Positions 5,161 through 46,012 of a stretch of DNA of 49,750 nt are shown one piece after another (positions within the stretch are counted from its first letter, which is position 1; every line of letters begins with the position of its first letter). The DNA lies in contig MU008240.1 of the NCBI GenBank assembly GCA_010909165.1, positions 1 through 49,750 of the forward strand, read 5' to 3'. Source of the stretch: Anthoceros angustus. Taxonomy: Eukaryota > Plantae > Anthocerotophyta. The notes below the pieces were generated by a model. It saw only the letters and a list, made by a program, of their open reading frames with translations. It ran no database searches and had not been told where the DNA came from. The position numbers were made by a program, and so were the translations under genes.

Positions 5161-6172
5161 CTTCTATGGGTGGAGAGCACTCCAACTCCTCGGCACTTGT
5201 GCGCCTCACCCGACTGTCTTGTGTGCGCCTTGAAAGAATCGCCCGCGTGCGCCCACCCACCGGCGAATCCCAAGGTGGGGAAACGCCATATCTTCCTCTT
5301 GCTATTTACGATCCTTAGCGGCTGCGGAGAGCGATGACGCCGTCATCCAGGAGACGGAAGACAACATTCACCAAACTAGCTAAAAATATACACCATTGTC
5401 ATGTGTTGGAGACTGTTTAGATGTAAGTGCGCGCACAAGTTTGTCCACAAATACCGTGTCCAGTCTGAAGGAAAAAGCTGATCGTGAATGAGACTATATG
5501 GTTTTCCCTCGTACTTCCGATGTACAATGTGACATATCGTGTATCGCAACAATAATTGAAATGTTTGCGGGTGACATGTCCGGGGAGAAATACCAAAAAG
5601 GTTGATTCGGTGCAGTTTCCGGCGTGTGCAAAAGTCCGGTCGAAGCGTCCAGGTGTGCCAAAAGGGGTTCGGAGAAACCCTTTCTAAGCAGTATTTAAGC
5701 GGCTTACATCCACTCCACGCGCATCACCAACATAAACTAATTGAGGGTTTTTTTGCTTGTGATAAGTGGAGAAGAGCTGCCTGTTGTTGCAAATATGTGC
5801 CGTTGCTCCAGAGTCAACAAACCACGTGGAAGTGATCTCATGGAAAGAGGTCAGGCAAACTGTAAGTACAGAACTGCTACTCTTGTGTGTCAAATGAGAC
5901 TGCTGTCCATTGGATTTAGAATCCTTTGCTGTAACGTGAGCTTCAGGCCTTGCTTCCTTCTTAGGCTCACCTTGCTTCTTTTTCCTGCAGTCACGTTCCC
6001 AGTGACCCGGAATTTGGCACCAGTTACATCTCCCTTGGCGCTTAACAGATGGGGAAGAAGAAGTGTTACTCTGTCCACTGTTAGGTGAGAACTTCTTATT
6101 CTTTATTTTCCCCTTCCGGGGTCCTTTTGCTCTTGCAGCATAGAGGACCTTTTCATTGCGACCTGACTTATG

Positions 6173-6940
6173 TCAACTCTGCTCCTCTTGTAGAAGAGCA
6201 CCGACAACCTCATTAAGGCTAATGGTCGAAGGTTGTCCAGTAGCAACGGCTTTATAGGAGTCTCTAAGAGCAGCATTCTGACTAGACACAAAATTCTGAT
6301 ACGAAGAACGAAGGCTGGACAAAAGTTGGGCAGTCACATCCACCTCAGTCATACGGCTACCTAACGCGGCAAGCTGAGCCCGCAGGTACCGTAACTTGGT
6401 GACATGAGCCCCAACAAGGTCCCCTTCCTTCATCCGCAATCCAAAGAATTCATTACGTGTAGCAACAAGAGTAAGAATGTTCTGCACCTGATATGTGTCT
6501 ACCAGTTGTTTCCAGACCTCAGCTGCAGTGTCTAGAAACTCCACTTCTGTAACAGTGGTTTCATCTAATCCCAATAAGAGAATGGCAAACGCAACTTCAT
6601 TGCCCTTCTTCCACTTGTCTTTTTCATTTTGTGTAGGACCTGTTCCTCCAGAAAGAACCACAACCTGAGAGGGATCAGGCAATGATCCATCGACATATTC
6701 CCAAACATCACGGGCATTCAGAGTATCCTTCATTCTGGCTCGCCAGCTCTCAAACCGGGTAGGTTTTCCATCAAACCTATCCTTTTCTTTAAACTCACCA
6801 GAGTAAGAAGAGAAAGGAGAAGTGAGCGAAGAGGCTAAGATGGTTGCTAGATGTGGTGAGGACACATATGAGAGCCAAAGAGCATTCAGTGGGTCAAAGT
6901 TCATGACAAGGGAAGGCTGTCTAGAGCAAAAGGTGGGCAC
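6173..6940 (-). CDS. Copia Gag (Retrotran_gag_2/UBN2-type), 255 aa visible
   Basis: RFDG..FESWRARMKD.L...VWEYVDG...W...NEVAFAILLLGL...TAAEVWKQL..TY...RNEFFGLRMKEGD.V..HV..L..L..QL..LG...LLSSL..SY.NF is the typical Copia gag pattern. Confidence 0.85.
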   Translation of the reverse strand: MPTFCSRQPSLVMNFDPLNALWLSYVSSPHLATILASSLTSPFSSYSGEFKEKDRFDGKPTRFESWRARMKDTLNARDVWEYVDGSLPDPSQVVVLSGGTGPTQNEKDKWKKGNEVAFAILLLGLDETTVTEVEFLDTAAEVWKQLVDTYQVQNILTLVATRNEFFGLRMKEGDLVGAHVTKLRYLRAQLAALGSRMTEVDVTAQLLSSLRSSYQNFVSSQNAALRDSYKAVATGQPSTISLNEVVGALLQEEQS

Positions 6941-7269
6941 TCCATGAACAGTCGTGTAAGTTTTATGGCGAAACTACAGACTGATTCAAAACGAGGTGGC
7001 TAAGCTAGACTAACCTAAAAGAAATTCATGTGAACTGTGACTAAAAAACGGTTCAGTAACCTAATGCTCAGGAGGTGGAGAACTCAAGGGGCGTTTTGAT
7101 CAGTGGCACATAGAAGAAAACCAGCAACACTTGTACACCTTGAGGCTCCAGCCAACTGACACCTTGATCAGGGGTGTCGGTTGAGAGCTTGAAGGTGCAG
7201 GCTATGGCCCCTGGTGACAGTTGAAATCTGCGCCTTGAAACTTCACTGTGATCCTCTGCACGCTCTCTC

Positions 7270-10270: not shown

Positions 10271-12110
10271 CCACTCCTCTCCTCGAATGAAGTGATACTT
10301 CACATCCACATGTTTAGTCTTCTCATGAAACCTTTATTCTTTGCCAATTGGATAGCACTCGCTATCACAATGCAACTTTCTTGTGACTCAACCTTGATCC
10401 CCAAGTCTCCCACTAAGCGAGCAAGCCATATGGCTTCCTTGCAAGCCTCGATTCTTTTAACATACCACCTCTGTGGTAGATAGCATAATGCCTTGCAAGC
10501 AGAAATGGCCATGAGGCGCCCTCCATTGCACATGAAGACATAACCTGATGTGGACCTCCTTTTGTCCATATCCCCTGCATAATCAGCATCTATGTACCCA
10601 ACCACATGCATCTTCACTACCAAAACATATGCACAAAGCTTTTGTACCATTCATATACCTCATAACTTCTTTTACTGCCTCCCAATGCTTCTTGCCGAGG
10701 GTTTGACATAAACACACTAACCCTCCCCTTTGCAAAGGCAATGTCGGGGCGTGTAGCAATCATTGCATACATCAAACTCCCTATGAGTATGGGACCTTCT
10801 CCATTTCATCTTTGTCCTCCTCGAGCTTGGGCAATCCTTTGAAAGTTTCACATATGGGCAATGGAGTACCCAATGGCTTCCCCTTCTCCATGTTGAAGCG
10901 TTGAAGCACCACATTAATGTTGCGAGACAAATAAAGCGGATGCTTATGTCTATTCCGAATACACATGCCATGCCAATGTATGGCTCGCCTCTCCCAAGTC
11001 TGTCATTTCAAAGTGAGCATTCAACTTTGACTTCAACACTGAAATCTCATCCGTACTGTTTCCAGCAATTAGCATATCATCCACATAGAGGATCAAAATG
11101 AGTAAGCTTTGAACCTTAGCTTGCTTTGTATAGAGGCAATGATCCTCATCGCTACGTTTGTAGCCTTGAGAAAGCATAAATGAGTGGAACTTGTGATACC
11201 ACTCTCGTGCTGTTTCAAACCATAAAGGCTCTTCCTTAACACGCACGATTCTCTTTGCCCTTCTCAACAAAACCTTGGTTCTTTGCATGTAGACGTCCTC
11301 TTGAAGATCACCATGCAAGAATGCCGTCTTGACATCCATCTGCAAGTTCCATATCATTCCACGGCAACCAAAGCAAGAACGCCATAAGTTGTCATTTTGA
11401 CTCTTGGTGAGAAAATCTCATCAAAGTCAATGCCTTGTTGTTGCTTGAAACCCTTAGCAACCAATCGTGCCTTGTACTTTGGTTTGCCATCATGAGTATG
11501 ACCTTCATCTTGTACACCCTGCACGCAGAGTGCCTTCTTATCCTAGGCAAGCAACAACTCCCAAGTTTGGTACTTATGCAGTAATTCATTTCGATCGCAT
11601 GGCCTTCTCCCACTTTTTGTTACTCATTGACATGGCCTTTGTAAGAAGAGGGTTCCCCACAACTGTCAAAGATGACATAATCCGTAGATGGATCATACCC
11701 GTGAGGTCGTGTAATCCTCGCCTCGACTGACAAGCATTAATACTGTCCTCCTCTAAAGAAAAGTCTTCCCAAGTGGCATCTTGTTCTCATTGAAGAACAC
11801 GCCGTTAGTACGAACAACCTTTCTAGCCTCGGATCCCACAAACGGTATCCCATCTCACCACCATATAGCCAAGAAAAATACATTTCTTGGACTTAGGTGC
11901 CAACTTGTCCCAAACTCTTTGAACATGGCAAGATGCCTCATACCCAAACTCGCAGATGCTTGTAGGATGGTTCTTTCCGCACCATAGCTCCTCCGAACTC
12001 ATCAACAAATTTTTATTAGGAGATCTGTTAATAAGATGAACTGCAGACACGCCGCCCAAAACCCATTAGGCAATCCGTAGTTTGACAACAAAACCACGCA
12101 TCCTCTCCTC
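10270..12110 (-). mobile_element. Ty1/Copia element B pol remnant (integrase C-part, RT, RNase H; Tnt1/Tork-like)
   Basis: Frameshifted motifs: LPNGFWA (INT), [33 protein letters not shown] (RT), GYIDADYAGDMDKRRSTSGYVF, EACKEAIWL, HVDVKYHFIRE (RNase H). Confidence 0.92.
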
Positions 12111-16552: not shown

Positions 16553-18006
16553 GTCCTAAGATGGCTATCGGAAGGCGCCCACAATTGGGCGATCCTAGGT
16601 CGATGACATCCTAACCAAATTATCTTTAGGTTGCTACCACCTCACCTCGCTGCTCTGCGCGCCCTACCTCGGCTGCAGCCTCGTCCTCCATTCGCCGAGC
16701 TCTCTCACCTTGCCGGGTCGGAGTTCTCCACACTACTTCCACCTCATCGCTGCTGGAATTTGAGGTGTACCACCTTACAGGGCTTCGCATCTTCGGCCTA
16801 TTCTTGAGGATTATTCGGCTCCTCGTCCACCCAAGCTGGACCTCCTCCTCGCTCAACTCCTCCAAAGTCGCCTCCACCGCATAGCCAACCCCCACGCGTG
16901 GTAGAAGTATGCCGGGTCCTCACTTGCGATGGTAGGCCACGATCCCTCCTATTTCCACACATTCACCAACTTGGTGGTCATCTGTCGCGCTCTTTGGCGG
17001 ATCTAGCACGGAGTGTTGCTTCTGAGGTGGTTTTGAGCTCCTCTCAATTTCTTCTCGGCATCCTCCGGCTCCTTTCGTAGGTCTCGAGTTCGGCCACGAA
17101 CTTGGTCACCTCCGACACGGTCCACTAGGGCGTCCATAGATCCTGCGCCCACTTCCTTCGGCCAACTACCCTCAGAGGATGCCGGTTCTCAACACTTCCC
17201 TCGCTCCTCCCGTTGGTGCGTGGTCACCAGCTCCTCGGCGTTCTTCTCCACGCCTCTTGTTACTACTTCTTGGTAGGAGGTAAAGCTCCTACCGTAGGTC
17301 CTCCGTCCTCCACAGGTCCTCTGTAGAGGTTCACTCCCTACCAGGTGTTGTCGGCCTTCCAATCCTCAACCCCTCCGGTAGGTGGTCTCGTATCCTTCCT
17401 CCTCCTTTGTCGGCAAGATTGCTTTCACCCCTCCTCCCGTGCGGAGCAAGCTCTCGACCACCCCTAGGGCGTCTCGCGCACCTCTCAATCGGACGTCTCC
17501 AACCAGCCACACGCGTGGGGATCTCAACCGGGAGTGCTCGGCGTGAGGGACCTAGTCGCCCCTCTTATACATCGGTGGGCACCACCCCCGGATTTTAGGT
17601 CCTAAGATGGCTATCGGAAGGCGCCCACAATTGGGCGATCCTAGGTCGATGACATCCTAACCAAATTATCTTTAGGTTGCTACCACCTCACCTCGCTGCT
17701 CTGCGCGCCCTACCTCGGCTGCAGCCTCGTCCTCCATTCGCCGAGCTCTCTCACCTTGCCGGGTCGGAGTTCTCCACACTACTTCCACCTCATCGCTGCT
17801 GGAATTTGAGGTGTACCACCTTACAGGGCTTCGCATCTTCGGCCTATTCTTGAGGATTATTCGGCTCCTCGTCCACCCAAGCTGGACCTCCTCCTCGCTC
17901 AACTCCTCCAAAGTCGCCTCCACCGCATAGCCAACCCCCACGCGTGGTAGAAGTATGCCGGGTCCTCACTTGCGATGGTAGGCCACGATCCCTCCTATTT
18001 CCACAC
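16553..18006 (+). repeat. 408-bp identical direct duplication (16553-16960 = 17599-18006)
   Basis: Offset 1046 bp; identical ORFs 16626-16895 and 17672-17941; flanks differ immediately. Confidence 0.95.
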
Positions 18007-19700: not shown

Positions 19701-20224
19701 GTGCCACCGACCCTCCCACTAATGTAGAGGGGTGACCATGACGTGGACACCACCAACACATGTGGACTTTCCATTGCTGCTTGCATTTTTGTTGTCCATA
19801 CAAAGTTGCCCGATTTTCAACACGCGTTATAGGCAATGCACCCAATGGTTAGCCAAACTATATGAGAGATGAGGACATACAAAACACGGAAAATGTATCC
19901 CTCTATGATTTGTCTTAGGTCTGGGTGGTTTTTTTAATGAAATCAAGAAAACATGGTTTTGGTAGCTTTCAGTATACCTTTCGACCCAGTACACCCTTCC
20001 AACTAGTGACCGGTGAGCCACCATCCCAGGAGACCTTGTTCTAAGTGTTACCTTCCTTAGTTTTAGCTCACATTTATGCAACCATCCAATTCGCCACTAA
20101 GGGCCATCCTCGAGCTAGGACGACCTTTTCCGTCGCACGAGGTAAGCACCTAATTCATATAAGCACTTCCTCAATTAACAACCAAGCAAACAAACTGACA
20201 CGTGAGTACGTGTAGTGCAACTAA

Positions 20225-20829
20225 TAACAACAGGAGGAGTAGCTCGCACGCTGGCACAAACACACCTCCAACAACAACACGCAAATTCCTCACACATCGC
20301 CTGAGTCATAGCTGGCCTCCTCACACACGCCTCAGACAGAGATCTGAGGACAAGCTATGATCCGAGCTTGTCTCAATGGAAGGGTCTATATATACTAGAC
20401 CGCATCGGCATATTCCTAAGATATCCTATTGGCATCAAAGATATGCCTAAATATCCTAAGAATACACTATAATATGCAAGGAATACGCCAAGCATATTAC
20501 TGCCAGCATATTATCGAGCTTATCCACTTAGCTATTGTATCCTAAGAATACACTATAATATGCATGCCAAAGCATATTACTCGAGCTTATCCACTTAGCT
20601 ATTGCTAACTATGTTAATTAACACTAATCAATGCTTAATTAGCATAAGCTACATGTTTAATTAACACTAATCAATGCTTAATTAACATAAGCACATTAGA
20701 TTAATTAACACTAATCAATGCTTAATTAACATAAGCACTTAGATTAATTAACACTAATTACTTACTTAAAGATAAGTAATTAGATTAATTAATGCTAATC
20801 AAACACTAAACCCAAGTGCGATTAGTATC
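20225..20829 (-). mobile_element. LTR 'Y' copy 1 (probably a solo LTR, flanked by ACTAA)
   Basis: Highly similar to 27994-28584; ACTAA at 20220-20224 and 20830-20834; TATA-like TATATATAG; internal ~70-bp and ~42-bp AT-rich tandem subrepeats. Confidence 0.75.
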
Positions 20830-20933
20830 ACTAAGATGACATGCCGCAGGTAAGCACTTGAATTCATATAAGCACTTCCTCGACCAACAACCAAGCAAAC
20901 AAATCTAATACGCAGTATATAGGTGCAAACCAA

Positions 20934-20942
20934 TCCCCCCCT
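20934..20942 (-). promoter_or_regulatory. Polypurine tract of the DNMT/PHD Gypsy
   Basis: AGGGGGGGA followed by T-TGGTTTGCAC (probable 3' LTR start at 20932). Confidence 0.75.
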
Positions 20943-21001
20943 GATAATGTGAGACTCCAAGTCAAAACATTATCATTAGTAGGACTACATACGTACGCAC
21001 C

Positions 21002-21150
21002 TCATGTAGTGCATTGTGCACAAAACCAATCTTCCTCGGGAATGTCGTCAAGAGGTGGTTGAACACAAAACATGTGGTATCCCCTATTGCACCGATCACA
21101 AAGAAGCATTACATCATCATCATCGACGTCCACAAAACCCGACACTCCAA
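21002..21150 (-). pseudogene. PHD finger at the C-terminus of the integrase
   Basis: Not in the ORF track. Minus strand: LECRV(C, after indel)..VDDDDVMLLCDRCNRGYHMFCVQPPLDDIPEEDWFCAQCTT* = C4HC3; stop TGA at 21002-21004. Confidence 0.93.
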
Positions 21151-21299
21151 GTCTTTGGGTGGACGCCACATATCAGTAGTTGAGGGTCCAAATTGGGTAA
21201 GTGGCATGTGCGCAGTTCTTGAGGTGATCCTTCCATCTTCGGCCATCGGATCCTTCGAGCTCAAGCACTCCATCTTTGCCTACTCGCACGACCCGCAAG

Positions 21300-22350
21300 A
21301 TGACTCACGGTGGATACCTCCAAGGTGTTGCTCGCTTCCGGCGGTAGACATAATCTCCAACTTCGAACTTGCGCACCTTGGGTTTCCATGTCCCTCCTCG
21401 TGTAAGCATAGCGCAGCTTGATCCTGTGTTGCGCTATGGCAAGGTTCTCCATTGCCATGGGCATGATCCGTTTGAAAAGCTCCCGCCTTTCGGTCTAGGC
21501 AATCATCCGCGCGCCAATCCACGTGCTTGTAGCCTTGCTTGCCTCACGTTTGGCAAAATGGTTGTCGCCCATACAACAAGTAGTATGGTGAAAAATTGCT
21601 CAAGGCTTGATTGCTCACCCCGCACTAGCACTAGGTATGGCATCCCTTCATCCCATGTCTTGGTCATTTGTGAGACAATATTTGCGCAAGGCCCGCTTGA
21701 AGGTCCGCAAGCGCTCAGAAGTCCATCGGCTTGAGGATGATCTCGACGACGTCGATGATCAATCAAGCTCTGTCAAGCAAGTCTTGAAATTCCCACGAAT
21801 TCTTTGCCCGGTGAGAACCTCGCACATGCTCCATATCGACTAAGAACGGAAGCCAAGAACGCCTTGGTAAGCCGAGAGTCACGCTTGGGTAAGATGGCAA
21901 CCTCGCACCACTTGAAATGCTCCACCATTAGCATGACATGCTTGTTTCGACGGCCTCGCATGTCCGGCATGAGATCCACACTCCACTGTAGAAGAGTCCT
22001 CGGATCGGCAGAGAGTGAAGCACAACATCATTGGTGTGAACCTTGCCTTCACTCGATCGCACTCTACATTCTGCGACCAGCCTTTCCACATCTCCATACA
22101 TCCTTGCCCAGAAGTGTGTGGGCCTGAGCATGCTGTAGGTGCGCTTAGCACCAAAATGCCCTAAGCCTTCATGCACCTGGGTGATGAGTCTCACCCGGTC
22201 CTCCGGCTTGGGTACAATTCTATCTCCCGCAGAATCACGGACATACATTATGTCCTCCTTCCAATAGTACCGAGCCACCTTCTCGCGTAGCTTGGCCTGC
22301 TTCTGAGATGAAAGCCCTTGTGGCAATTCCCCAGACCTTAGGAAGGTCAC
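21300..22350 (-). pseudogene. Gypsy integrase (H2C2 zinc-binding domain and core)
   Basis: IVPKPEDRVRLITQVHEGLGHFGAKRTY...W..MYGDVERLVAECRV; LPIRGLFY; VLMMVEHFKWCEVA; LSRYGAC; WDEGMPYL; MAMENLAIAQHR. Confidence 0.92.
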
Positions 22351-22559
22351 CGCTATTGCATCCGCCCAGATGTCCCTGACGGACTACAAAGCGATGAGTG
22401 GAGGCTCTTGATCCTCATGCGATGGCCAACATGGTATCTCGGACTACTCTCCCCGGCTGGTTCGTCATCCGAATCTTGCCCGGCCCCGTAGTGTCTTCGA
22501 CGGTAGAGAGGATTCCTTGACAACCCATCGATTAGAGTGAACTCTACCGCCGGTGTTCG

Positions 22560-22940
22560 ATGACAAAGTCATACTCGGAGAATGAGAGCCCACCGCCGCC
22601 TTTCCTGTAAGCTTGGCGCCATCAACCAATGCAAGGGTTGATGGTCGGTGATTAGTCGAAATTGATGTCCAAACAAGTACGGACGAAAGTGTCCGACGCC
22701 CACACGCAAGACATTCTCCTTCATAGGCGAGTAGTTGGACTCACTGGTTGTTGCTCCGACCGCATAGGCAATGACATGTTCCTCTTCCTTGTCATTGATC
22801 TGCGCCAAGATCGCCTATGCGCCGATTTGCTCCAATCGAAAGTACGAACGGCCATCAAGTTTGGATGACCAAGAATTGGCGAGCTCATGAGTCTACCCTT
22901 CAACTCCATGAAAGCGACTCCTCTTGAGTCCAACGCCAAG
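22560..22940 (-). pseudogene. Gypsy RNase H
   Basis: AFMELKGRLMSSPILGHP, EEHVIAYA, ESNYS, HFRPYLFGHQFRLITDHQPLHWLM. Confidence 0.92.
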
Positions 22941-23049
22941 TCACCAACTTCTTCAACAAGTCATTCAATGGCCGCAATCTCGCTCATCCGTGGAATGAAC
23001 TTCTAGTAACCGCCAAACCCAAGAATGCCCTCAACTCGAGATGTCGTTT

Positions 23050-23700
23050 GGCTCGAATGCGCGATTGCCTCCACCTTGGTGGCATGCGGCGAGATCCACG
23101 CGTGATCCAATGACCCAAGTACAACACCTTATCCTCTCAAATCGACACTTCTGGATGGGCCTTCAACCCAAGCCAGCCTAGCAAAGACTTTCAAGATGTT
23201 GTAGATGCTCCTCAAAGGTATTGCTGAAGATGATGACGTCATCAATGTAGCACTTGGCGAAATGCAAGTCCTTGAGCTCATTGTCCATGTACCTTTGAAC
23301 TGCGTTGGCGTCTTCAACCCAAATGGCATGTAATTCCACTCGTACAAGCAATCTCCCAACGCCGCTTTTGTCTTCTTGGCGATCTCTACTTGGTGAAACC
23401 CTAGCCTCAAGTCCAATGTTGAGAAGAACTTGTGACCCAATGGTGTCGAAGATCTCTTACCGTCGGCATGGGATAGTGGTCATGTGGGATTCTGCTCAAC
23501 GGCCGATAGTCACCACACATTCTCCTCTCCGTCCACAATCCATTCTCATCCTTCTTTTCGAAGAATCGCCGCATGCGTCATGCGAGTTAGATCGTCGAAT
23601 CACCCTAGCTTGAGAAGCTCTTGGCATCGATTCTCAACCAAATCCCACTCATTTTGCCGAGCCTGCGCCTGAACACCGGGTTCATCTGTCTATGTGGAAC
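23050..23700 (-). pseudogene. Gypsy reverse transcriptase
   Basis: KFFSTLDLRLGFHQV, YEWNYMPFGLK, CYIDDVIIFS (YIDD at 23238-23249). Confidence 0.95.
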
Positions 23701-23959
23701 TTCCCTTTGGTGTACTTCCCCATCTCCGCAAGCGTGAAAGCAAACACATGTCGCGATGCCTCCAACAACTCCTTTAGCCGACGCCGCTGATTGCTCTTCA
23801 ACTCGACGTTAACCACTCATGTGGTGTGGCTCGATGGCTTGCACGCTTCCTCACGTGCTCGCTCTCCTTGCCTCCAAACTCGCCTTCTCCGCTGAGATGC
23901 GATAATGTCCTTCACCCACCGAACCCGCCGCTCAACCCCGCCTTCGGTTTCGGTTGGTT

Positions 23960-24835
23960 TCCGCTAAACAACCGTCATCATGTTCACGCCAAATGCTTGC
24001 CCAAGCAGACATTCCTTCTGGCCACTCCCTTGTCTCTGTCGATCAAATCCATGGCCAACTCCTCGTGGTGTTGGCTCTCCCAAGGCCTCGCCATGTCTCC
24101 ACCACAACGGGGGCCATGGTTCTGGCGTAAGACTTGGACTTAGACACAAAGGTTGGCCAAGCCGCCATGGGGTGTCCAGTGTTCCAGTGGAAGTGCCTTG
24201 TCACCTTGATGACTTGTTGGGCATGCCTTCATGCTAGCACATCCTTGACAACATGATTAGGTCGCTTGGTGAACGACAAGACACTTCAAATGTTCCAAGG
24301 GAGCAAGGTTAGTCCACATGGACCTCAACCTATGAGCCCTCGAACCAAATTGAGTGCATCCAATAGAAGCTCCCGACCCAACACTCCTCGGATCGTGGCA
24401 AAGTCCTGAACTTGCTTCTTCACGCTCATGCCGGGCACATTCTCCAACATGTATCCACAAGGCCTTTCTTGCCCTTTCCGGATCAAGCGCAAGATCCTCA
24501 TCGTCATAGAACAATGTGCGTGGATCCTTGACCTTGACCCTTGCCCAGAGGATAGTCCTTGACACTCCCAACCCCGCGATGACAAGGTCCACCGGCTTGC
24601 CCAAGACAACTCAAATGGGACAACCCTATCATGCGAACATCCATCGGCGCCTTCCGGTAACCCTTCACCGACTCCCACGCCGGAGGTTAGGTACTCCCCA
24701 TCAAGTCTCTTACGCTCTGACACAATCCTTGCTTTTGGATCCGGGTCACAATGCACGATCTTCGCACTTTGATGCCACACTTTAGCACCGCCCAAGCCGA
24801 TCGATGCCTCCAAAGAGTTCCACGAGCACTATGCC
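23960..24835 (-). pseudogene. C5 cytosine DNA methyltransferase domain (DNMT3/DRM-like catalytic fold, non-permuted motif order) inside Gypsy pol
   Basis: Reassembled across 1-bp frameshifts: I VLVELFGGI (24803-24829); II VHCDPDPKAR; III PMDVR; IV PVDLVIAG-WECQGLS (Cys 24562-24564); V KDPRT.LFYD; VI YMLENVP (24436-24444); VIII QFGSRAHRLRSMWTNL (~24306-24350); IX EPTP.EELAM; X LLGQAFGVNMM (~23979-24008). Confidence 0.9.
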
Positions 24836-25199
24836 GCCTTCCGAGGTCGCCATGTGATGACTGGTGTTTAGGTCACAAACAGCTCAACCCTAGGCAAGAA
24901 CTTACAGCCTCCGCTCATAGGGCACCGGGTCCTCTTGCACCATCCTCCATGCCTTTTGCACGGCTCATTGCTGCAGTCACCACCCGGTGACTTGAAGAAC
25001 CTCCGAGGGTGGTTGCAACCCTAGCTTGTTTTCCTCCTCGCCGAAATCCTCCATCGTATGTTGTTAGACGCACAAGAGGTTCAAGCACGTATGGCGTGTC
25101 CTTCACTACGCCAAACACCGGGTAGACGCTGCTGGCAATGAGGTTCTCATGATCCTTGCCATGCAGAGAGGGATGCGGGCAATCCGCTACTCTGCTCAG

Positions 25200-25560
25200 C
25201 CTTCTCCACTGGGTCGATAGTAGACTGCCTCCGCCCACAAATCCACCATGACCTGTGTTTGTACAAAGCCCGCTCCCAAAGAAGACATCAAAAGTGTCTC
25301 GTGACTGACTGCAAAGGTACCTCGACAAAGGTGAAGTCTGCTTCTTGGTTTGAATGAAACCTTCAGCTTGTACCTTGTCACCCCAACACATGCTCCGTGG
25401 TCCCATGGGTCCGGATCTTCCACTTGGTTTCCTTCAACCTTTCTTGGTGGAGACCCAACGCCTTCCTTCACTCTTCTTCCAACGATCACCCGTGCTCTTG
25501 TCAATCAACACCTCCTTGGTGCGAATCCATTGATTTCAATGTGCCTCCCGATTGTTGACC
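25200..25560 (-). pseudogene. Aspartic protease domain
   Basis: IEINGFAPRRCLID (Asp codon 25500-25502) then, after a frameshift, GARVIVG...LLMSSLGAGFVQTQVMVDLWAEAVYYRP. Confidence 0.65.
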
Positions 25561-25910
25561 AAAGCCACTCCCACTGCAAAGATTCCGCGAGATGCTTGGC
25601 TCGAGGTCAAGAATGACATCATTGCCACTGCACATTGTCGACACTTGCTTCGCCTTCAAGGGTTGTCAACATCCGCCGAGTCAAACCCCTCGACTTCCTT
25701 CACGCCAACCCCATGTCTTGTAGGTCAAACATGGCATCTCCGAAGCTTTTGTGCCATCGCTCCGAACTGCATGGGTTTCTCCACATCGCCCACACTGACT
25801 TTGATGTTGCTCCCACATTGCTCGCTGGCAATGGCTCAAACGACTTTGGCATCTTGGCATAGGTTCGGAAGAGGATCCCAAGCTTCCTTCCGTGTCTTCC
25901 GACACCGGTG

Positions 25911-27200
25911 TCAAGACATCCTCTTCTTCCTCCGAGCTATCTTCTCTCGTAGCCGCCAGAGGTTTCTTCCCTTGCCCCTTGATCCGGTCACCGCCATGTA
26001 TCCAAGCTTGTGCTCATCTTCTTCGCCCCTCCGATGATGAACCGCCGCTCTCCTTGATCTTCGCCCGCACCAACTTCCAGTTTGCAAGGCGCACGAGCCG
26101 CCCATCGCCTTCTTTGATGCTTCCCGCTTTTGTCCACGGACTTCGCCTCCTCCACTCGCGCCTTTGCTCTTCGATTTTGTGGATGAGGTTGACGCAGATG
26201 CATTGGCCGGGGTTGTTGCCGATAACCCGAGGCCGCAATTCGGATGCTTCTCCCAACATGCCGCTTCATTGTGCCCTGCACTCCCACACCTAGGGCATGG
26301 CCTCACCCTTGACTCAATGCATGCTCGCACTCATGAGGGAATGGTCCGTCCTCGGCACCTCACGCAGGGGCTCACTCACTTGGGTGGGCGGCTTGTCTCG
26401 CCGAGCTCCTCCACTGACCTCCGCTCATGTCGCCCACCACCTACTTGTGCCGGAGTAATCACTTGCAAAGACGAGAAAGTGTCACGGGCCCTATCTTGCC
26501 CATCTCGTACACTTCCTTGAGGTGTAGCTTTCTTGCACGCTGTTTGTTGCATGCCTTCAGGCATATGGCAATGCCTGCAAGTATTTCTCGCAGCCTCGGT
26601 CACTCATGATCTTGGTGTCACGCACTAACCGGTCGATTCTTCGATAAGCCATCTTCAGCCTCGCCGACTTCATCTTGAAGTGTGTCACCGAGATCTTCTC
26701 ATCCGTGCTTGCGAAACTCCACCGAAGATGTCAAACATCTCTTCGATGGGATCGTGCCCACTTGCCACCGCCTCCGTCACCGGTTCCTTCGGAGCTTGAA
26801 TCGCTACTCATCGGTCCTCCACCGCTCAACAACGCCTTTTGGCGATAGCACGCCAATGCTTCATCCCCAAGTACTGACATTTGGATGATCGCTGTATCCG
26901 GCCTTCAATTCCATCTCCGCACACACCGCACTGCATTTCTCGATGAAGTCCTCCTGGCAAGCAGCCCGCCCGTGAACAACTCCATTCGATCCTTGTCTCC
27001 TCCCATCTTGACGACTCCAAGAGACAAGTCCTCCTCGCCGCTACCGAGTTGTCCGGCAAAGACTAACGTGTCTTGTGTGTTGCCACCATGATCCTTCAAA
27101 GATTGTTGATTGTGTCGCTGGGTTCCTCCGCCCTTCTGGTACCAAAATCGAGGTGTCGCACTTCTCCTCTTGGTGGACTTCACCGCCTCGATGGACTTGG
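25911..27200 (-). pseudogene. Gypsy gag with CCHC zinc knuckle (26256-26297)
   Basis: PCPRCGSAGHNEAACWEKHP = CX2CX4HX4C in ORF 25911-26330. Confidence 0.8.
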
Positions 27201-27379
27201 TTGGTAGCTCCGTCCGGATCGAGTGTGTGCATGCACTGTGTTAGTGGCTAGATCAAACCCTTAATCAAGGTTAACACACCCGCTATCTTAGATCGTGATT
27301 AGTGAAACCTCTAAGTATCTATGCATGTTAAAATCGCATAGAAATACTGCAGGCTACATTTCAAAAATGTGAGCTGGGT

Positions 27380-27830
27380 GAGTTGGATAGCAAAGGCAGG
27401 AACTCAGAGCATTGGGTGGATCAAGTATGGGGTGCCACACTGGAGTTTTGGACAGAAAGTGAAATCACATGGACGATGACATACCCATGTTCATCCGCTT
27501 CCCCTTATCCCTTGAATCCGGGGCCCAAGAGTAAAATACTTGTTTCTCCCTTGGTTGGCCTTAAAAGGCCAGCCCCTTGTGGAGGCCTCATTCCTCCCTT
27601 GGTAGGGGCTTCGCCCGCCTCCTCCTTGGCTTGGCCTTGGCCTCCTCCCTGGCCTTGGGCTTGGGCTTCCTCTCTCCTTGGCCTTGACTTGGGCTTCTTC
27701 GCCTCTCCTTGGCCTTGACTGGGCTTCTTCCTCCCTCGGCCTTGGCTTGGGCTTCTCCTCCCTCCTTCGCCTCACTTGGTCCCCTCTAGGCCTCAAGCCT
27801 GGGCACACTTAGAGTCCCTGCCTACTTGCT
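27380..27830 (-). mobile_element. Low-complexity R/P/E/K-rich gag-like fragment with possible decayed zinc knuckle
   Basis: ORF 27491-27808 (RREEKPKPRPREEEAQ repeats), followed by C..PC...FCPKL-like residues. Confidence 0.35.
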
Positions 27831-27855
27831 TAAAGAGCGAGCCGCCTCACAGAGC

Positions 27856-27961
27856 CTCGCCTAGCGCAAGATCGCCCAGCATCGCCTAGCACCTAGCATC
27901 GCCTAGCTCACCCAAGCATCGCCTAGCATCGCCTAGCATCGCCTAGCACACCAAGCCTAGC
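27856..27961. repeat. Tandem CATCGCCTAG (10-mer) repeats
   Basis: At least five exact and several degenerate copies. Confidence 0.85.
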
Positions 27962-27993
27962 ACGCCTATCTAGCCACACACGAGATCATAGCT

Positions 27994-28584
27994 TGAACAA
28001 CAGGAGGAGTAGCTCGTGCGGCACAAACACACCTCCCAGAACAACACGCAAATTCCTCACACATCGCCTCCTGAGTCATAGCTTTGGCCTCCTCACAACG
28101 CTCAGATCATATCTAGAGGACAAGCTATGATCCGAGCTTCTCAATGGAAGGGTCTATATATACTAGACTCGCAAGATATTCCTAAGATATCCTATCAAAG
28201 ATACGGAAATATCCTAAGAATACACTATAATATGCAAGGAATATGCCAAAGCATATTACCGAGCTTATCCACTTAGCTATTGTATCCTAAGAATACACTA
28301 TAATATGCAAGGAATATGCCAAAGCATATTACTTGAGCTTATCCACTTAGCTATTGCTAACCATGTTTAATTAACACTAATCAATGCTTAATATAAGCAT
28401 TAGATTAATTAACACTAATCAATGCTTAATTAGCATAAGCACATTAGATTAATTAACACTAATCAATGCTTAATTAGCATAAGCACCTTAGATTAATTAA
28501 CACTAATTACTTACTTAAAGATAAGTAATTAGATTAACTAATGCTAATCAAACACTAAACCCAAGTGCATAGATTAGTATCACA
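27994..28584 (-). mobile_element. LTR 'Y' copy 2 (TG...CA termini)
   Basis: Minus strand TGTGATAC...TGTTGTTCA; homologous to 20225-20829; no TSD or standard PBS seen. Confidence 0.8.
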
Positions 28585-29267
28585 CGGCATGACACCTCCA
28601 CACAAATCACATTTGACATCTATCGCTTTCTATCTTTGCGGCTCACAGCATATCGCGTTCAAGGAAGTAGGATGCCCATGTACCGTTTTCGCCCTTGCTG
28701 CGCACGTACCATATTTAGAGCATGCCTCTCAACCATGACCCCACCGTCATGAGGGAAAACAAGGCCGGGCAAACTTACAAGACGTTTGTTCACCCAGTAT
28801 GACTTAATAATAAGTATAGATTTAAACCTTTAGCGCCTAGAAAGGAAGATTAGTGATTAGTCTTTTTCAATTCCGATATTTAGAGGATGGGAGAAAATTT
28901 CTTGGTGTGCGATAGAGTGGGCTGTTTAGAACTTTGGAGGGAATTCGTAGCCCCAAACGCAGCCTGTTAGGAGGAGTGGGTTGCTAGTGCTTAAAGTATT
29001 GGCTTGGGGTGCTAGTGCTGCCAGCATTGGCATAGGTTGCTTGACAAGGGTTGCTGGAGGATGTTTGTGATATCAAAGAACCTTTGAGTGTATCCTTGGC
29101 TACACTTTATTTAGATTCACTAATCTTTGTATTCTTGTTAACTCACCATAGAAGTGTCACTATAAAATAATACCTTATATGAAGAGAGAAAAGGGGTAAC
29201 CTCCTCTATTTGTCATGTGGGTGCCTAGGCACTAGTCTGGTGCCTAATGGACCAAGCTACAGGCAAT

Positions 29268-29394: not shown

Positions 29395-31351
29395 CTAGAA
29401 TGAAGTCTCCAGCTTGCTCAGATGCTCTGCGATACACCGTGCGTCCATTCCTGCTCCCTTGAGACCTCTCTTGGTGAAACCTGCGGTGAATAGGCCTCTG
29501 TCCCCTTTCCAGTTATGAGGGAAAGATAAATTTGGAATTCCATCGGATCAAATGTTGAGTCATCCCAGTATCATACATGCATATAACAAGATAAGGTTAC
29601 CAAATGATCACGTTTGAAATATTTGATGAAACATAAAACATATCAATTGCAACAAAATTTATTTGTTCAGGTTTCACACTAATAGATAAAAAAATTTGAA
29701 TGTGCAGACCAACAATGCCAACAAAACTCATTCCGTAAATTTCACATCCCAGACCCTGAGTACAGAAGTTAGGACATCCCAGGCCTGAGCAAAGGAGTTA
29801 AAACACCCCAGGCCCGAGCACATAGGTTAAAAATCCAAGGCCCTGAGCTCACAAGCAAACTATATTACTCCAACAAGTTAGCGCAAAATTACCCGAAGCC
29901 AATTGGGCACGTTGCTTCTAAACCCAGTAGCAAAGATGATACAGTCGAATTCTCGGAAAGAACCATCATCAAAGATCGCTCCTGTCGCAGTGATTTCGTT
30001 CACACCTTTCACGACCTTGCAGGAAGTAGTCAAGGAGTCAACACAAAAGCTGAATGCAAATGCCTCGTCTCGAGGCGGCATCATACACCTATTGTAATTC
30101 AACCTGCCAAGATACAGACAGAATTGCAGGCAGGCACGATCTCGAGCAGAAGGCTGCATCAGCAGGCAGGCCTGTATGCGTAGAGTAATGCCAATACACC
30201 AGGTACACTTTGAACATCAAAAGTTACCGTGATATGGCCGGTTTGAATCATCTTGAGTGTGCCAACATCCAGAACAGGAGTGATGCCCTCCTTGTCCTTG
30301 CGCTCAAGAGGCCCCAGCGAGGGCCTCGGGATGCCCCACTTAGCTGTGTCTCCCATCACGAAACGGGCATACAGAAGCAGCAGCATGTCGGTGTATCGAT
30401 AGGACAGGTAACGCAAGAGTGTGGTAGCCACCACAAAAGTTGAGATCCCAAACATCTCCCGAGGGAGAACGTGCATCTGCAGCACATGAACAAGATCAAC
30501 ATATTACCAATGAGATCTTTGTCATGATCGTCAGGGAATTCAAAGGTGACAAGAGATGAAGAGAGACAATGAAGAGAGGCAAGTGTTGCAAAGCAGCAAT
30601 TTGGGAGTGCATCAAATACAGAGTAGCTCACCGGGCTCCGCACAACGAGGCTCGTTCGGGCGCCATGTTGCGCCAGGTCCAGCGACACTTCGAACCCGGA
30701 GTTTCCACTGCCCACCACTAGCACCTTCTTGCCAGACCACTCCCGGCCGTTGCGGTACTGACTGCTGTGGAGCGCTCTCCCACAAAACACAGGTATGCCT
30801 GCAATTGATGGGGTGACTGGATCCGCATTCTCTCCTGTTGCGACCACCAGCCATCTCGTGAGATAAACAGATCTTTTCCATTTTGGATGGATGCCGGTGT
30901 TGGCGACTTCGCATGAGGACGTCACAACTCGCCACATCTGGATACTCTCCAGGTATGATGCGTCAACGACGCTGTGGTTAAACAGCGGGCGGATGGCAAA
31001 TTCCTCAGCGTAATGTTCCAAGTAAGCTTGGAACTGCTTACGCGATGGGTAGGCGGGGTAATCCGCAGGGAACTTCATATAAGGAAGCTCTGAGTGGTCC
31101 TTGGGTATGTGGAGGTGAAGACGGTCGTACGTCTTATTCTTCCAGAGCGAGCCGACGCAGTCAGCCCGCTCTAGGATCATATAGGGTATTCCGCGCTGCG
31201 TCAGGCACGCAGCCGTGGCCAGTCCGGCAGGGCCGGCTCCCACAATGACGGCACCCCGCACAAAGGTAGCCCCACGCGTCACGGATTCAAGCTGGAAATC
31301 CCGTGGAGCAAAGCCATAGGGTCCATCAGCTCTGGCAGCAGAAGAAGCCAT
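29395..31351 (-). CDS. YUC: YUCCA flavin-containing monooxygenase (indole-3-pyruvate monooxygenase), ~420 aa. Exons 30632-31351, 30228-30476, 29893-30015, 29395-29564
   Basis: GAGPAG (FAD), [26 protein letters not shown] (FMO motif), GSGNSG (NADPH), [37 protein letters not shown]. Phase-0 introns at conserved YUC positions (GT..AG for introns 1 and 2). Exon 4 as assembled has a GG acceptor and a 1-nt deletion. Alternative upstream ATG at 31393. Confidence 0.95.
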
Positions 31352-31770
31352 TGTCACAAACCTGTCAACAAGCAAGACCCACTGTAAGAACATACTTGGC
31401 GACCAAGCTAGCTCTCACTCAAGCTATTCACGTTGTGGAGTCAGGATCTGAGAAACAGCTCTCCACCAATGTGTGAGGCTGCCCAGATCTATCCTTAGCT
31501 CCAGCTAGGAGCAGAAGCTACCTACAGCTACAGCAATCAGACACAGCAGCAATGTCAAGTTTGGAAGTTGGAGGCACATGCTACCACTAGCTTTCGCGCG
31601 TTACTGATGAAAGATGAGAGATTTTGGAAGCCTCTCTTCACAGAGAGCATGACCGAAGAGAGGTTTCCCAGGTCACTCCTTGCCTCAACCGAGGCGCAAC
31701 AGCGTCATGCACAGCAGAAAATCAAAGGTTGTAGGGTCGCTTTTGATGATGATCACCTACACGCAGTCTA

Positions 31771-39300: not shown

Positions 39301-39552
39301 TAATGATATACAATGTTGATATCATAGTTAGGGTTTAGGGGTTTAAGTTATCCATATATTATATGAAGATATAGGGTTTACTAGATATGGTGTCGTTTCA
39401 TTAGGTTACGTCTCTAAGTGAATAGATACAACGTTTCATTAAGTTTAGTTTTAGTTGTCTTTTCATGCATAAGCAACTTACTTCTTTCTTGATCCAACAA
39501 TGTAATTATTCTATAATGTTTAATTGATCTACATTAGTCCATAAAATCTTCA
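39301..39552 (+). repeat. 5' LTR of Copia C (TA...CA)
   Basis: Near-identical to 45757-46012; followed by TGGTATCAGAGC. Confidence 0.95.
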
Positions 39553-39564
39553 TGGTATCAGAGC
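39553..39564 (+). promoter_or_regulatory. PBS (tRNA-iMet) of Copia C
   Basis: TGGTATCAGAGC. Confidence 0.95.
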
Positions 39565-42500
39565 TGACCTAGTGTAGGTTGCATTCAAATGAATGCACAT
39601 TGAAATTGTGCATCAGAAAATATGCACAATGCTTTCTTTGATTGTTTTCTTGTTTTATAAATAAGTTAAAATCAAGAAACATAAGATAGAAAAGAATGGG
39701 TGCATTCTGTTTTATTCTATTTTATTTTGATGAATTCATATAGATTACGCAAGATCAGCAGAGTCTAGCGCACTTCCATTGAGTTGCTACTTGAGCAATT
39801 CAATGGAGGCACACTAGAGCACGTGGGCAAAATTATATATGTAAAAATCATATAAAGAAAACAGAAAATGCAGAATGCATTGTATATACAATCGTGGCAC
39901 ATAGCCATGGAAAATTATATCTACCATAATCCCGGTGAATCCTAGGAGGAACAATCAAAATCCAAGGCGGGATCGCAGAATGCCGAGACAAACCCCGCAC
40001 ATCAATTACATGGGCGCATCCTAGTGGAGCAACTTGCCCAAATCAAGCACAAGGAGACACATTGCAGGAGCCTTCAACACACTTCTCGAATTGTTGCTCC
40101 CAACAGAGCTTGACTTGACATTCACATTGTAAATACAGGCAACATCGCCCACTACGAGAACATACACCAACGCTGCTTCCTCAAAGTGTACAATCTGTAG
40201 GTGTAAACACAATTGTTCAGCGTCTTGAGGCTAACAATAGGAATGTTGAAAACAGATGTCGTCAGATTTCAGGTCATGTCGCTTCGGCTAGCATTGATCT
40301 GCAGGATTTGAAAGAGCAGCTAACACACTTAGATTACAAGCTTGTAATGTTGCTGAAACCAGAGTTGTTGGCCAACCCAGCATTCAGAGGTACAGCATGC
40401 AAGCACGTAAGTAAAACTAAGCATGAAAGGAAGTTTGATACACCTAACTCTTGCCCTTCATGCTCCACTTACGCATTCAATAAGTTTGAGATGAGAAACT
40501 CTAAGATAGTCGCGCATAGCTTTTGGGAACAAACCATAGCGCACGCAGAGTGCACGGAGCAACCACAAAACCAACACGCATTGTAAGTAGAATGTATGGA
40601 TGGTGAGAATAGTACAGCAGTGCATGATAGTGTTCATGCTAGTGACCGTGAAGAAGACACATTAGAAAGCTTCTTCAATCAGAGGACAAACTCTTAGGAG
40701 TTCAGAACCCAAAATGGGTGACACATCCTCTACACATAATTTTGAAGGTGAGTCCTTCAAGGAGAAGGACGAGTTCAACTGAAATGACTTGACATCCGGC
40801 TTATAAGAATGGAGGCGTTCTCGAAATGAGAGGCCTCCTCAAACATGCTCTTGGAAAAGTAGTGAAACCAGACGAGGATCTTCGGGAGAGGAAGAATGGT
40901 TAGCTAAGGACAGGAGCCAACCTCATACGCAGTGGCGACAACCGAGATGTTGAGGCGGCGGGTGAATACTTCCGAAATCATGAATCGCCTAAAGGAACTC
41001 TACGAGCGAACATGGTAAGCGCAATGACTCTAAGGAATTTTGAACCTAAGGATGAAGGACGGTGACTCGGTGGAGAAACACGTGAGTACCTTGAGGACCC
41101 TAGCCTCACGGCGTGGTGCCTCAAAGTTGCCATTGGAGATGATGAGATGGTGATGAGGCTCCTTCTTTCGCCCAGAGTCATGGTCACATTTCGTGACTTC
41201 TCATCTGTTTCAAACACAAGCTACGTTGTTAGCTAAAAGCAAGAGAGATGCGAAATGAGCTTCACAGCTCGTGAGTTCCATTTGAAGAAGCCAAGGACCA
41301 ACCATAAGAAAGCAGGGAAACAGCCTGACACCTCACAACAAGGACGAGGAGGAAGAAGCCCTTCTCCAAAGGAGGTGGTGGAAACTCTTCGGGGAGGTAG
41401 CTCGGATCCTCACCCGGAAGAAAAAGAAGCTGTGAACTCGCAATCGGTGCAAGCCGCGCCATTGGGAAAAGAGTGCAAAAAGCGGTGGAGTTCCTCGCAA
41501 GGAGGGAACCACTCAATCAAATGTTGTGGTAAAAAGGTTAATACCCCATCTCTTACTTGGGACTAGGAGTTTGCTAGTCCATTCTTTCCCACTTGTCTTT
41601 CCTCCAAAGTGAATCAAACCAACATGAATGGTTCTTAGATACGTGCTTGCACATATCTGCTTTGATAGGAATGAATTTAAAACATCTGATCGGGATCAAT
41701 ATGTTTACCTTGGGACGATAGGTCTCTAGTCTCACTCGTGGCAGGAGTTAATAGTTCCACTGGAAACACACTCAAGTTAAGATGTCTACCATGTGCCCGA
41801 GATGACTAGAAACCCGATCTCCGTTAGAAGATTGAATCACATAATACCATGTCGTGTTCACAAGAGCATTGCGTAATCATAGATGCATTTGACCCTAGAA
41901 AGGTACTTGCGCATGGGTCTTGGACCATGATCCGCTCCGCTCCATTTGCAGTGGAGTAGTCCCACCGACACAAGACGCCTCCCTTGCATCCGCACAACAA
42001 ACGAAAGGCTCGGGTGGCATGCACGCCTAGGTCATCCTCACATGGCAAAGCTACAAAAATTGGCTATGAGTGACTGTATCAAGATGGACCTATTGGCCCT
42101 TGACTCCTATACCCTTATGTGAGGCTTGTGTTTTGTCGAAGAAACACCAAGTTGCCTTCAAGAACAAAGCACCTCACCGTGCATGTACTTGAGCTTGTAC
42201 ATCGATTTGTGTGGACCCTTATCTCAAGCGTCCATTGGTGGTGGGCGTTATTTCTTAACGCTTACGATGACAAAAGTAGATTTGTCACCACCTACATCCT
42301 CAAGAACAAGAGCGAATGTTTCTCCTATTTCAAGGAATACATCAAGTTCAACGCGTTGGTGGAAAGCCAAGACACTAAGATCGAGAATGAATGGGAATTC
42401 ACCTCTAATGAATTCCAGCAGCCTGTAAAGATGAAGGCATTGGGCGTCAACTCACGGTGGTATACACTCCCCAGAATGGAGTGGCGAGCGTTTGAATCTC

Positions 42501-44749: not shown

Positions 44750-45700
44750 TCACGAGACACGAGAGTATGAGTCCCCACAGACTGACTCACCATGCAGGCT
44801 TTGACTCTCATCTTCCTCCTCTTCAGAAGGATCGGGACTGTCCAAGGAACGGTGGGTCTTCTCCCACTGCCTTCTTGCCTTGCCTGAGATTCTGTCTTCA
44901 GACTGGAGGTCAGACTCTTCTTCGATGCGTATGTTAGATCCTGCACAAACAGTGGGAGCTAGGTTAGCTCCACACACACACACACAAAACAGTAAACATG
45001 CTGCAACAGGAATGGAATTTGGGACTTACTATACGTGCTAACAACATGGTGAGGATACGCCCAGCAATCTTCAACTTTGATACGGCGATCACTTTTAGTC
45101 GCCACATGAACCCTATACCACATAGGGGTGCGAGGGTGCTTCAGTGAGGAGACAATTTGGGTTTCCTTGAACAGTCTCAGGGCTTGGGAAAGCTTGGTCC
45201 TCACAAGGGTTCGTAAAAAGCCAAAATGTGGTGAACATGTGCGGATTTGCTTTTACTCTTGCCGCTCTTGGCCTAAAGGAGTGACACGCACCAAGAAGGG
45301 CCGCCCATGTTTCTTGTTTAGCTGAGCTCTGTCGCAGAAACTCCTTGGTGGTTCCTTTGGGCGCCACGTTCTCTCTTCACGCCCCTTTAACCGCAGGAAG
45401 TTGGAAGTCTCCTCTGTCGCAGTACCGCCTAGCAACCGCCTAGAGCATTTCCTGCCGGTTTCTTGGGCAAAGTACCGGACTGAAGAGTGACGCCATCTCG
45501 ATATGGCTCAGATCGAAACCTTCTCTCAAGGCGATCGATGCATATGAGGCAAAAGAGCGTAAAGGAGAATTATAAAGGGAGCCAACGTACTCACCGGTGC
45601 TTCACAGTACAACAGATTCCATAGTGTCCGTAGTAAAGACATGAAGATGGGGCGAAAGCTCTACCACCACAATATGGCAAACCAAGATTGAAAACCCGAG
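44750..45700 (-). pseudogene. Antisense spliced accessory gene of Copia C (intron 44941-45029)
   Basis: QETWAALLGAC (45281-45316) ... VEDCWAYPHHVVSTY | GTAAGT...TTTGTGCAG | RSNIRIEEESD...acidic tail; splicing keeps the frame. The 5' boundary is approximate. Confidence 0.7.
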
Positions 45701-45756
45701 CTCAACTCCGCAGCTAGCCTCACAAGGGACATCTAACTATTTACAACAAGTGGGAG

Positions 45757-46012
45757 TAATGATATACAATGTTGATATCATAGTTAGGGTTTAGGGTTTA
45801 AGTTATCCATATATTACCAAGATATGATAAGCTAGGGTTTACTAGATATGGTGTCGTTTCATTAGGGTTACGTCTAAGTGAATAGATACAACGTTTCATT
45901 AAGTTTAGTTTTAGTTGTCTTTTCATGCATAAGCAACTTACTTCTTTCTTGATCCAACAATGTAATTATTCTATAATGTTTAATTGATCTACATTAGTCC
46001 ATAAAATCTTCA
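45757..46012 (+). repeat. 3' LTR of Copia C (TA...CA)
   Basis: Follows PPT AAGTGGGAG; followed by TSD ATATA. Confidence 0.95.

Follow-up and report, generated by a model that had tools for sequence, protein, structure and literature searches.

Does a plant Ty3/Gypsy element carry, at the C-terminus of its integrase, a histone reader other than a chromodomain, and what would such a reader do for the element? Chromodomains are the textbook case of retrotransposons reading histone marks to choose a landing site. The question is raised by an element in the window, by which we mean the whole 49,750-nucleotide stretch of the Anthoceros angustus contig analyzed here. A sequence-only reading of this DNA had placed a PHD finger at the integrase C-terminus and had assigned it to the readers of histone H3 unmethylated at Lys 4 (H3K4).

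The PHD finger and the element that carries it

On the minus strand of the window, positions 21005–21172 form an open stretch whose C-terminus reads ...VMLLCDRCNRGYHMFCVQPPLDDIPEEDWFCAQCTT, directly followed by a TGA codon. A Pfam profile search with the minus-strand translation, the check suggested by the sequence-only reading, matched PF00628 over the final 38 residues with 50.6 bits (E 1.9e-13), the cut-off being 24 bits. The score is far above chance, and the PHD finger is genuine. As assembled, Cys1 (codon at 21144), Cys2 and the remainder of the finger are each read in a different frame, and no single open frame holds both the finger and the integrase. The C4HC3 finger originally described thus stands, but its continuous reading does not, as that peptide had been spliced from the three frames. 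Frame-aware alignment to an intact relative, P0173, makes seven of the eight zinc ligands readable, with Cys2 lost at a break. Aligned in this way, the window is collinear with the single ORF of P0173 from the reverse transcriptase (RT) to the PHD finger (53% identity over 851 residues), and nothing interrupts the order between RT and the final Cys of the finger. The stop codon follows the finger as had been read; the polypurine tract does not adjoin it, the G7 run lying about 60 nt past the stop.

The element spans approximately 20131–28594 on the minus strand and encodes a gag CCHC knuckle, a C5 DNA methyltransferase (DNMT), RT, RNase H (RH), integrase (INT) and the PHD finger (Table 1). Alignment to relatives gave no gag-PR match, and no protease was detected in the window.

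Table 1. Features of the PHD-bearing element, from its start to its end; positions are those of the window
Feature	Position	Strand	Basis
Repeat A, left copy (element start, TGTCATG...)	27996..28594	-	blastn and alignment with right copy
gag CCHC zinc knuckle	26256..26297	-	read in translation
C5 DNA methyltransferase, upstream of RT, frameshifted as assembled	23967..24867	-	alignment with the P0201 DNMT (39% identity, 293 residues)
Reverse transcriptase and RNase H	22520..23813	-	P0152 and P0173, by frame-aware alignment
Integrase: HHCC zinc domain, catalytic core, long helix, C-terminal barrel	21200..22383	-	PF17921 E 4.4e-12; alignments
PHD finger (C4HC3), KDM5-PHD1-like, final pol domain	21005..21150	-	PF00628 E 1.9e-13, PDB matches, family alignment
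Stop codon TGA	21002..21004	-	direct reading
Polypurine tract G7	20935..20941	-	G-run at the same place in related loci
Repeat B, first copy	20842..20934	-	alignment with second copy; repeat family D17
Repeat A, right copy	20226..20841	-	alignment with left copy
Repeat B, second copy (element end, approximate)	20131..20225	-	alignment with first copy

Of the Ty3/Gypsy hallmarks, the RT-RH-INT order, a Gypsy-type integrase and a polypurine tract are all present; two canonical LTRs with a tRNA primer site were not found. The best PDB sequence match of a relative, P0002, is Ty3 Gag-Pol. Within the window's integrase, the first Asp and the Glu of the DDE triad are readable and the middle Asp falls at a break; no GPY/F motif is recognizable in its C-terminal domain (CTD) barrel. 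The DNMT displays motifs I (ELFGG), IV (GWEC) and VI (ENV) plus an AHRxR..WTNL stretch, and its motif VIII stretch is one that we take to be DNMT3-like. Against PF00145, the DNMT of P0201 scores above the cut-off and the window fragment alone reaches E 0.03. The repeats do not form two plain LTRs but follow the layout A-coding-PPT-B-A-B, and no tRNA primer site was evident by eye after the left repeat. Among 80 related metagenome loci, eight likewise have the complete A-coding-B-A-B arrangement, with two duplicates among the eight. The seven complete loci inspected have TG...CA ends and a 4-bp target duplication that is exact in four and agrees at three of the four positions in the other three. 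With a DNMT in pol and split repeats, the element matches the Gypsy-DNMT3 type of Ty3/Gypsy elements. None of the features tested makes it a variant of the chromoviruses.

Two details of this architecture deserve mention in their own right. At the B|A joint of the window (20842/20841), right-end sequence meets left-end sequence, CA being directly followed by TG in the manner of a circle junction; at the corresponding B1|A2 joint of L003, L027, L028, L036, L049, L056 and L057, two letters separate CA from TG. For an element with a DDE integrase, its reverse transcription and integration may depart from the canonical modes. In addition, an NC(A/S)PCHL motif (21200–21210 on the minus strand, and in relatives) ends the CTD barrel just before the linker to the finger; one of its Cys residues is invariant in 36 relatives, and the motif could form an extra metal site.

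The broken frames raise the question of whether this copy is decayed or poorly assembled. Relative to P0173, frame-aware alignment reveals 38 frameshifts in the window's pol, all of them deletions (missing bases) with no insertions, together with three stops. The same procedure applied to 17 related loci gave 0–5 frameshifts and 0–20 stops; natural decay in this PHD-Gypsy family yields stops, not deletions. Short-read contigs from three organisms (runs X1, X2 and X4, from three studies) cover 30 of 30 bins of 20800–25000; X1 may come from the same source as the window. Gaps outnumber other letters in six of the eight X1 pieces listed, and X1 record 3 aligns with the window over 207 nt with 12 gaps and 0 other letters. 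A further run, X7, contributed just five short pieces and has no bearing on expression. The left and right copies of repeat A agree at 558 of 577 aligned positions (19 mismatches), though with 24 gap events. Since the breaks are exclusively deletions, relatives decay by stops and the X1 contigs differ mainly by gaps, we infer that the copy is most likely young and that its breaks are very probably assembly errors. An old, degenerate copy was considered and appears unlikely on two of these grounds, the kind of change that decayed relatives gather and the similarity of the A repeats. Among the short-read pieces listed, none bridges the integrase core to the PHD finger, and for this copy we infer the integrase–PHD frame.

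Several other features share the window. A gene for a YUCCA-like flavin monooxygenase (29881–31414, minus strand; FMO-like, E 1.1e-18) has an unbroken frame of 351 aa; unique DNA is seemingly better polished than the repeats. Its end lies about 1.3 kb from the left end of the element, a single site that carries no weight either way on targeting. A 408-bp duplication with 100% identity (16553–16960 and 17599–18006, 1046 bp apart) falls in an otherwise error-rich stretch and is possibly an assembly or polishing artefact. Copia-type elements are represented by gag and Pol_BBD at 5687–6973 and by RVT_2 at 10953–11417, both on the minus strand. A direct repeat pair (250 bp, 95%; 39301–39552 and 45757–46012, 6.46 kb apart) contains TTTAGGG-like words, and an inverted pair (650 bp, 67%) occupies 43248–43886 and 46737–47388; the direct and inverted repeats of 39301–47388 probably represent a further mobile element.

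The integrase–PHD fusion in relatives

How typical is the finger among relatives of this integrase? An integrase-only HMMER query against 1.84 billion protein representatives returned 847 matches, the best 150 of which were examined; word-index protein searches with window fragments gave no matches, which is weak evidence. The integrase match could be located in 148 of the 150, and 65 of these extend at least 340 residues further. In 59 of the 65, a PHD finger lies 283–306 aa downstream of the integrase, as detected with a family PHD profile built from the same set of relatives; Pfam confirms the finger in 18 of the 23 proteins scanned. The six remaining long relatives comprise P0038, which ends inside the finger, four multi-stretch matches, and P0123, in which the PHD finger precedes the integrase and the C-terminus is a GPY motif. 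A second search, biased in that its query included the finger, listed 120 proteins, 117 of them with PF00628. No chromodomain family was detected among these 120 proteins or among the Pfam-scanned relatives. The sequence-only reading had allowed that other copies of the family might lack the finger or carry it out of frame with the integrase; instead, the PHD finger is family-wide, and its fusion to the integrase is a family trait. Named members come from Haematococcus, Volvox, Pleodorina and Scenedesmus. Unnamed PHD clusters in the ESM Atlas, commonest in Chlorophyta (0.93 and 0.92), offer a lead only, and IMG/VR yielded one weak match.

Single intact RT-RH-INT-PHD ORFs are present in many relatives, and P0195 has DNMT-RT-RH-INT-PHD in one ORF. 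In the metagenome, the finger directly follows the CTD in 73 of 80 loci, which are mostly decayed copies of one family and hence not independent; 15 of these 73 are unbroken from the CTD to the end of the finger. The dead copies among L001–L077 carry mainly Cys-to-Tyr and Gln-to-stop changes, as expected under heavy cytosine methylation.

Two layouts follow the RT tree, a quick tree whose rows are relatives and the window's element. The first, that of the window's group (37 rows, SH-aLRT 88), is DNMT-RT-RH-INT-PHD-stop; the second (SH-aLRT 95) is RT-RH-DNMT-INT-PHD plus a long extension. The DNMT thus precedes RT in one clade and stands between RNase H and integrase in the other. The window itself sits on a long end branch inside the 37-row group, in no starred group. 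The extension, seen in the chlorophyte-containing clade (P0005, P0058, P0076, P0124 and others), measures 100–500 residues, often about 300–360, and those scanned had no Pfam match at E 1e-5. In P0047, P0097 and P0123, the PHD finger lies between RNase H and integrase, at least one of them having a GPY-type C-terminus; these fingers are possibly an independent capture.

The first six zinc ligands of the finger are retained in all 59 relatives, the seventh in 58 and the eighth in 57. An alignment of 36 relatives shows no variation at the DDE residues or at six of the PHD ligands. Near-intact pairs of loci reveal purifying selection on the PHD finger (L065/L067, pS 0.139 and pN 0.019; L065/L069, pS 0.95 and pN 0.17), similar in strength to that on the integrase CTD. 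We relied on these pairs because the pooled dN/dS of 51 mostly decayed loci (0.33 for the PHD finger, 0.28 for the integrase core) mixes post-insertion decay with selection.

The AlphaFold model of P0002 comprises the N-terminal domain, core, long helix and SH3-like β-barrel CTD of an integrase and then, across a linker of about 22 residues, a PHD finger that folds as a unit of its own (pLDDT 84–90). The model was built from 36 sequences with mean pLDDT 73.7 and pTM 0.43, a value at which the relative placement of domains is unreliable. By structure comparison, its integrase part matches the PFV and Ty3 intasomes. The location of the finger 22 residues past the barrel bears out its placement at the integrase C-terminus.

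Reader type and proposed role of the finger

Which state of the H3 tail would such a finger read? Compared with solved structures in the PDB, the finger of an intact relative best matches the PHD1 fingers of KDM5A, Lid, KDM5B and KDM5D, and BAZ2B and ATXR5; the first matches of the window's partial finger are KMT2D, CHD4, KMT2C, ATXR5, UHRF2, WSTF and BAZ2A. The PHD fingers of UHRF1 and UHRF2 are close matches as well, and UHRF1 PHDs mainly read R2. Two residues before the zinc-binding His, Trp occurs in none of the 59 relatives (Gly in 52, Ala in 6, Met in 1), and the window has Gly. The equivalents of KDM5B D328 (the Asp after Cys3) and W351 (the terminal Trp) are present in the window and in 54 and 56 of the 59 relatives, respectively, and the two positions of the LL pair are Leu in 45 and 38. 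At the position of KDM5B D308, four residues before Cys1, the window has Lys, with Asp one residue closer, at Cys1-3; across the family, that neighboring position is Asp in 30 of 59 and Glu in six, an acid being its commonest state. Met occupies Cys3-3 in 44 of the 59. We take this to be the position of ING2 M226 relative to Cys3; in ING2, that Met is reported to form one wall of the H3K4me3 cage.

In KDM5B PHD1, D328 is reported to bind R2, E321 to bind T3 and D308, before Cys1, to bind K4; W351 and L325 are needed for binding, and affinity drops more than 15-fold on K4me3, H3K4me3 readers using a Trp cage instead (PMC4225485). The assignment to unmethylated-H3K4 readers is supported by the nearest structures, which are readers of unmodified H3, and by the absence of Trp at the position two residues ahead of the zinc-binding His. 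The acidic run before LLCD, previously taken as a sign of this specificity, is a weaker sign than it seemed, as the KDM5B acids around LLCD bind T3 and R2 (PMC4225485). Because the K4-binding acid of KDM5B precedes Cys1, an Asp run before LLCD is not by itself proof of selectivity for unmethylated K4. Judged from these sequence comparisons, the finger is likely a reader of the unmodified H3 N-terminus, and it likely discriminates at K4 methylation. The Lys at the D308 position and the frequent Met at Cys3-3 speak against calling this firmly.

We propose, with about an even chance of being right, that the mature integrase retains the PHD finger, binds unmodified H3 tails and thereby avoids H3K4me3 promoters. 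The finger would remain on the integrase after protease cleavage and would bind the free H3 N-terminal tail (A1, R2 and unmethylated K4), tethering the integration complex to nucleosomes. By discriminating against K4 methylation, it would bias insertion away from promoters marked with H3K4me2/3. Because most chromatin lacks H3K4me3, the predicted effect is less that of a precise homing mechanism than of a promoter-avoiding filter combined with nucleosome capture. The element's DNMT is a module of its own. A role with the integrase is favored because the place of the finger is fixed beside it while the DNMT moves within pol.

Other roles can be envisaged. The finger might tether the integrase to A1 and R2 of the free H3 N-terminus with little regard to K4 methylation, raising integration into nucleosomes without promoter avoidance. 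Its best-kept residues, the D328 and W351 equivalents, are indeed those that serve A1 and R2, the acid before Cys1 is variable (30/59), and the UHRF1 and UHRF2 fingers are close matches. However, the top matches belong to the KDM5 PHD1 group, which binds K4me3 more than 15-fold more weakly, and an acid, Asp or Glu, still prevails at Cys1-3 (36/59); we consider this reading unlikely, though not negligible. Could the finger serve the DNMT rather than the integrase? The ADD domain of host DNMT3 reads H3 unmethylated at K4, and the finger might stand in for it within the polyprotein or the integration complex, linking H3K4-unmethylated chromatin to methylation of a newly inserted copy or of the DNA beside it. 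DNMT and PHD finger do occur together in both major clades, and retrotransposon DNMTs are reported to methylate CG de novo (PMC5890265). Yet the DNMT changes place and the finger does not leave the integrase, the two are separated in the window's clade by about 1,000 residues with RT and RNase H between them, and P0019 (2106 aa) has INT-PHD with no DNMT match, all of which makes this role rather improbable.

A similarly small chance is left for a finger that binds a non-histone host protein or is structural, acting in intasome assembly or nuclear import, unrelated to histone marks. Integrase tails often target through host proteins, as illustrated by the Ty3 intasome with TFIIIB, and the surface residues of the finger vary widely across relatives; the residues that are kept, however, correspond to the H3-binding groove of KDM5B PHD1. 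Finally, it is very improbable that the finger is a captured host fragment or an artefact that has no function and shares no frame with the integrase. The frameshift between the two in the window assembly and the small share of related loci unbroken from CTD to finger end would fit, but intact single ORFs exist in many relatives, the broken loci are decayed copies in which the integrase is disrupted as well, and fixed spacing together with purifying selection largely refutes this explanation.

Returning to an integrase tethered by its PHD finger, a broader scheme can be put forward tentatively, as possible but doubtful. A green-lineage-wide, non-chromovirus Gypsy clade would combine its own tether to unmethylated H3K4 with a captured DNMT3-type writer, a host-like reader–writer logic of landing on silent-compatible chromatin and then methylating it; it may also integrate via an internal end-to-end junction and not via canonical LTR ends. 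If promoter avoidance is true, it would account for the spread of a high-copy family through gene-bearing chromatin in algae and early-diverging plants at little cost to promoters, and the 50-residue domain would provide a compact, portable tool for directing integration elsewhere than to promoters.

Comparison with known systems

Retrotransposon PHD fingers, a PHD-bearing Gypsy element with an intergenic bias and a Gypsy-DNMT3 family are already in print; the present contribution lies in an INT-PHD fusion that is fixed across the family, in the type of reader and in the combination with a DNMT. In the literature searched, as listings or as open text, we found no description of this clade's C-terminal PHD finger, its reader type or the DNMT pairing; the fusion may already appear in published figures, in subscription papers or in Repbase.

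On the methyltransferase side, KnitGypsy-Dnmt3 of Klebsormidium nitens is described as having a Dnmt3-type methyltransferase in a Gypsy pol and repeats arranged as in DIRS elements, A-coding-B-A-B (de Mendoza et al. 2018, PMC5890265). Compared by description, it has both the DNMT in pol and the repeat layout in common with the window's element. A PHD finger is unmentioned in the text and searchable supplements of that paper, and likewise in the available text on the streptophyte elements named Gypsy-DNMT3 (bioRxiv 10.64898/2026.05.21.726589). The consulted part of REXdb (PMC6317226) mentions no PHD domain either; its Phygy and Selgy elements, considered as counterparts, were set aside, as they are given with tRNA primer sites and no extra domain is listed there.

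Retrotransposon-encoded PHD fingers have been called widespread (PMC6673714). A green-lineage example is Gypsy-7a_cRei of Chlamydomonas reinhardtii, a 15.4-kb element with LTR sub-parts and a PHD finger in Gag-Pol, but with no DNMT listed (Craig et al. 2023, PMC9940879). Its new insertions are reported to be intergenic 2.6 times more often than expected by chance, for which its authors proposed targeting, while noting that selection is possibly responsible (PMC9940879). Its legend lists PHD ahead of INT, so that this finger possibly lies on the N-terminal side of the integrase, the position seen in P0047, P0097 and P0123. In animals, Ginger1-9_HM is described with a PHD finger C-terminal to a Gypsy-like integrase, but it is a DNA transposon that also has Ulp1 (PMC2836005); the TE-PHD fusions described in cnidarians (bioRxiv 10.1101/2021.11.30.470311) are likewise animal elements, and their fingers are PYGO-like readers of methylated H3K4.

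The closest solved fingers by sequence are those of KDM5A/B PHD1, ATXR5 and BAZ2A/B (PDB 7klo, 2mny, 5vab, 4qf3). They share with the element the Asp of LLCD, the terminal Trp and the absence of a cage Trp, but belong to host chromatin enzymes, and in the element family the counterpart of the K4-contacting Asp 308 of KDM5B either lies one residue away or is missing.

By the accounts consulted, chromoviruses (MAGGY, Tcn1, Chlamyvir; PMC6317226) likewise have a histone reader at the C-terminus of a Ty3/Gypsy integrase, with guidance of insertion proposed or shown. Theirs is a chromodomain that reads H3K9me, whereas the window, in which no chromodomain was found, has a pol that ends with a PHD finger predicted to read unmodified H3; the split repeats and the DNMT are not chromovirus features. 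If the proposed role is correct, a PHD finger that avoids H3K4me3 would be a second, independent solution beside the chromodomain.
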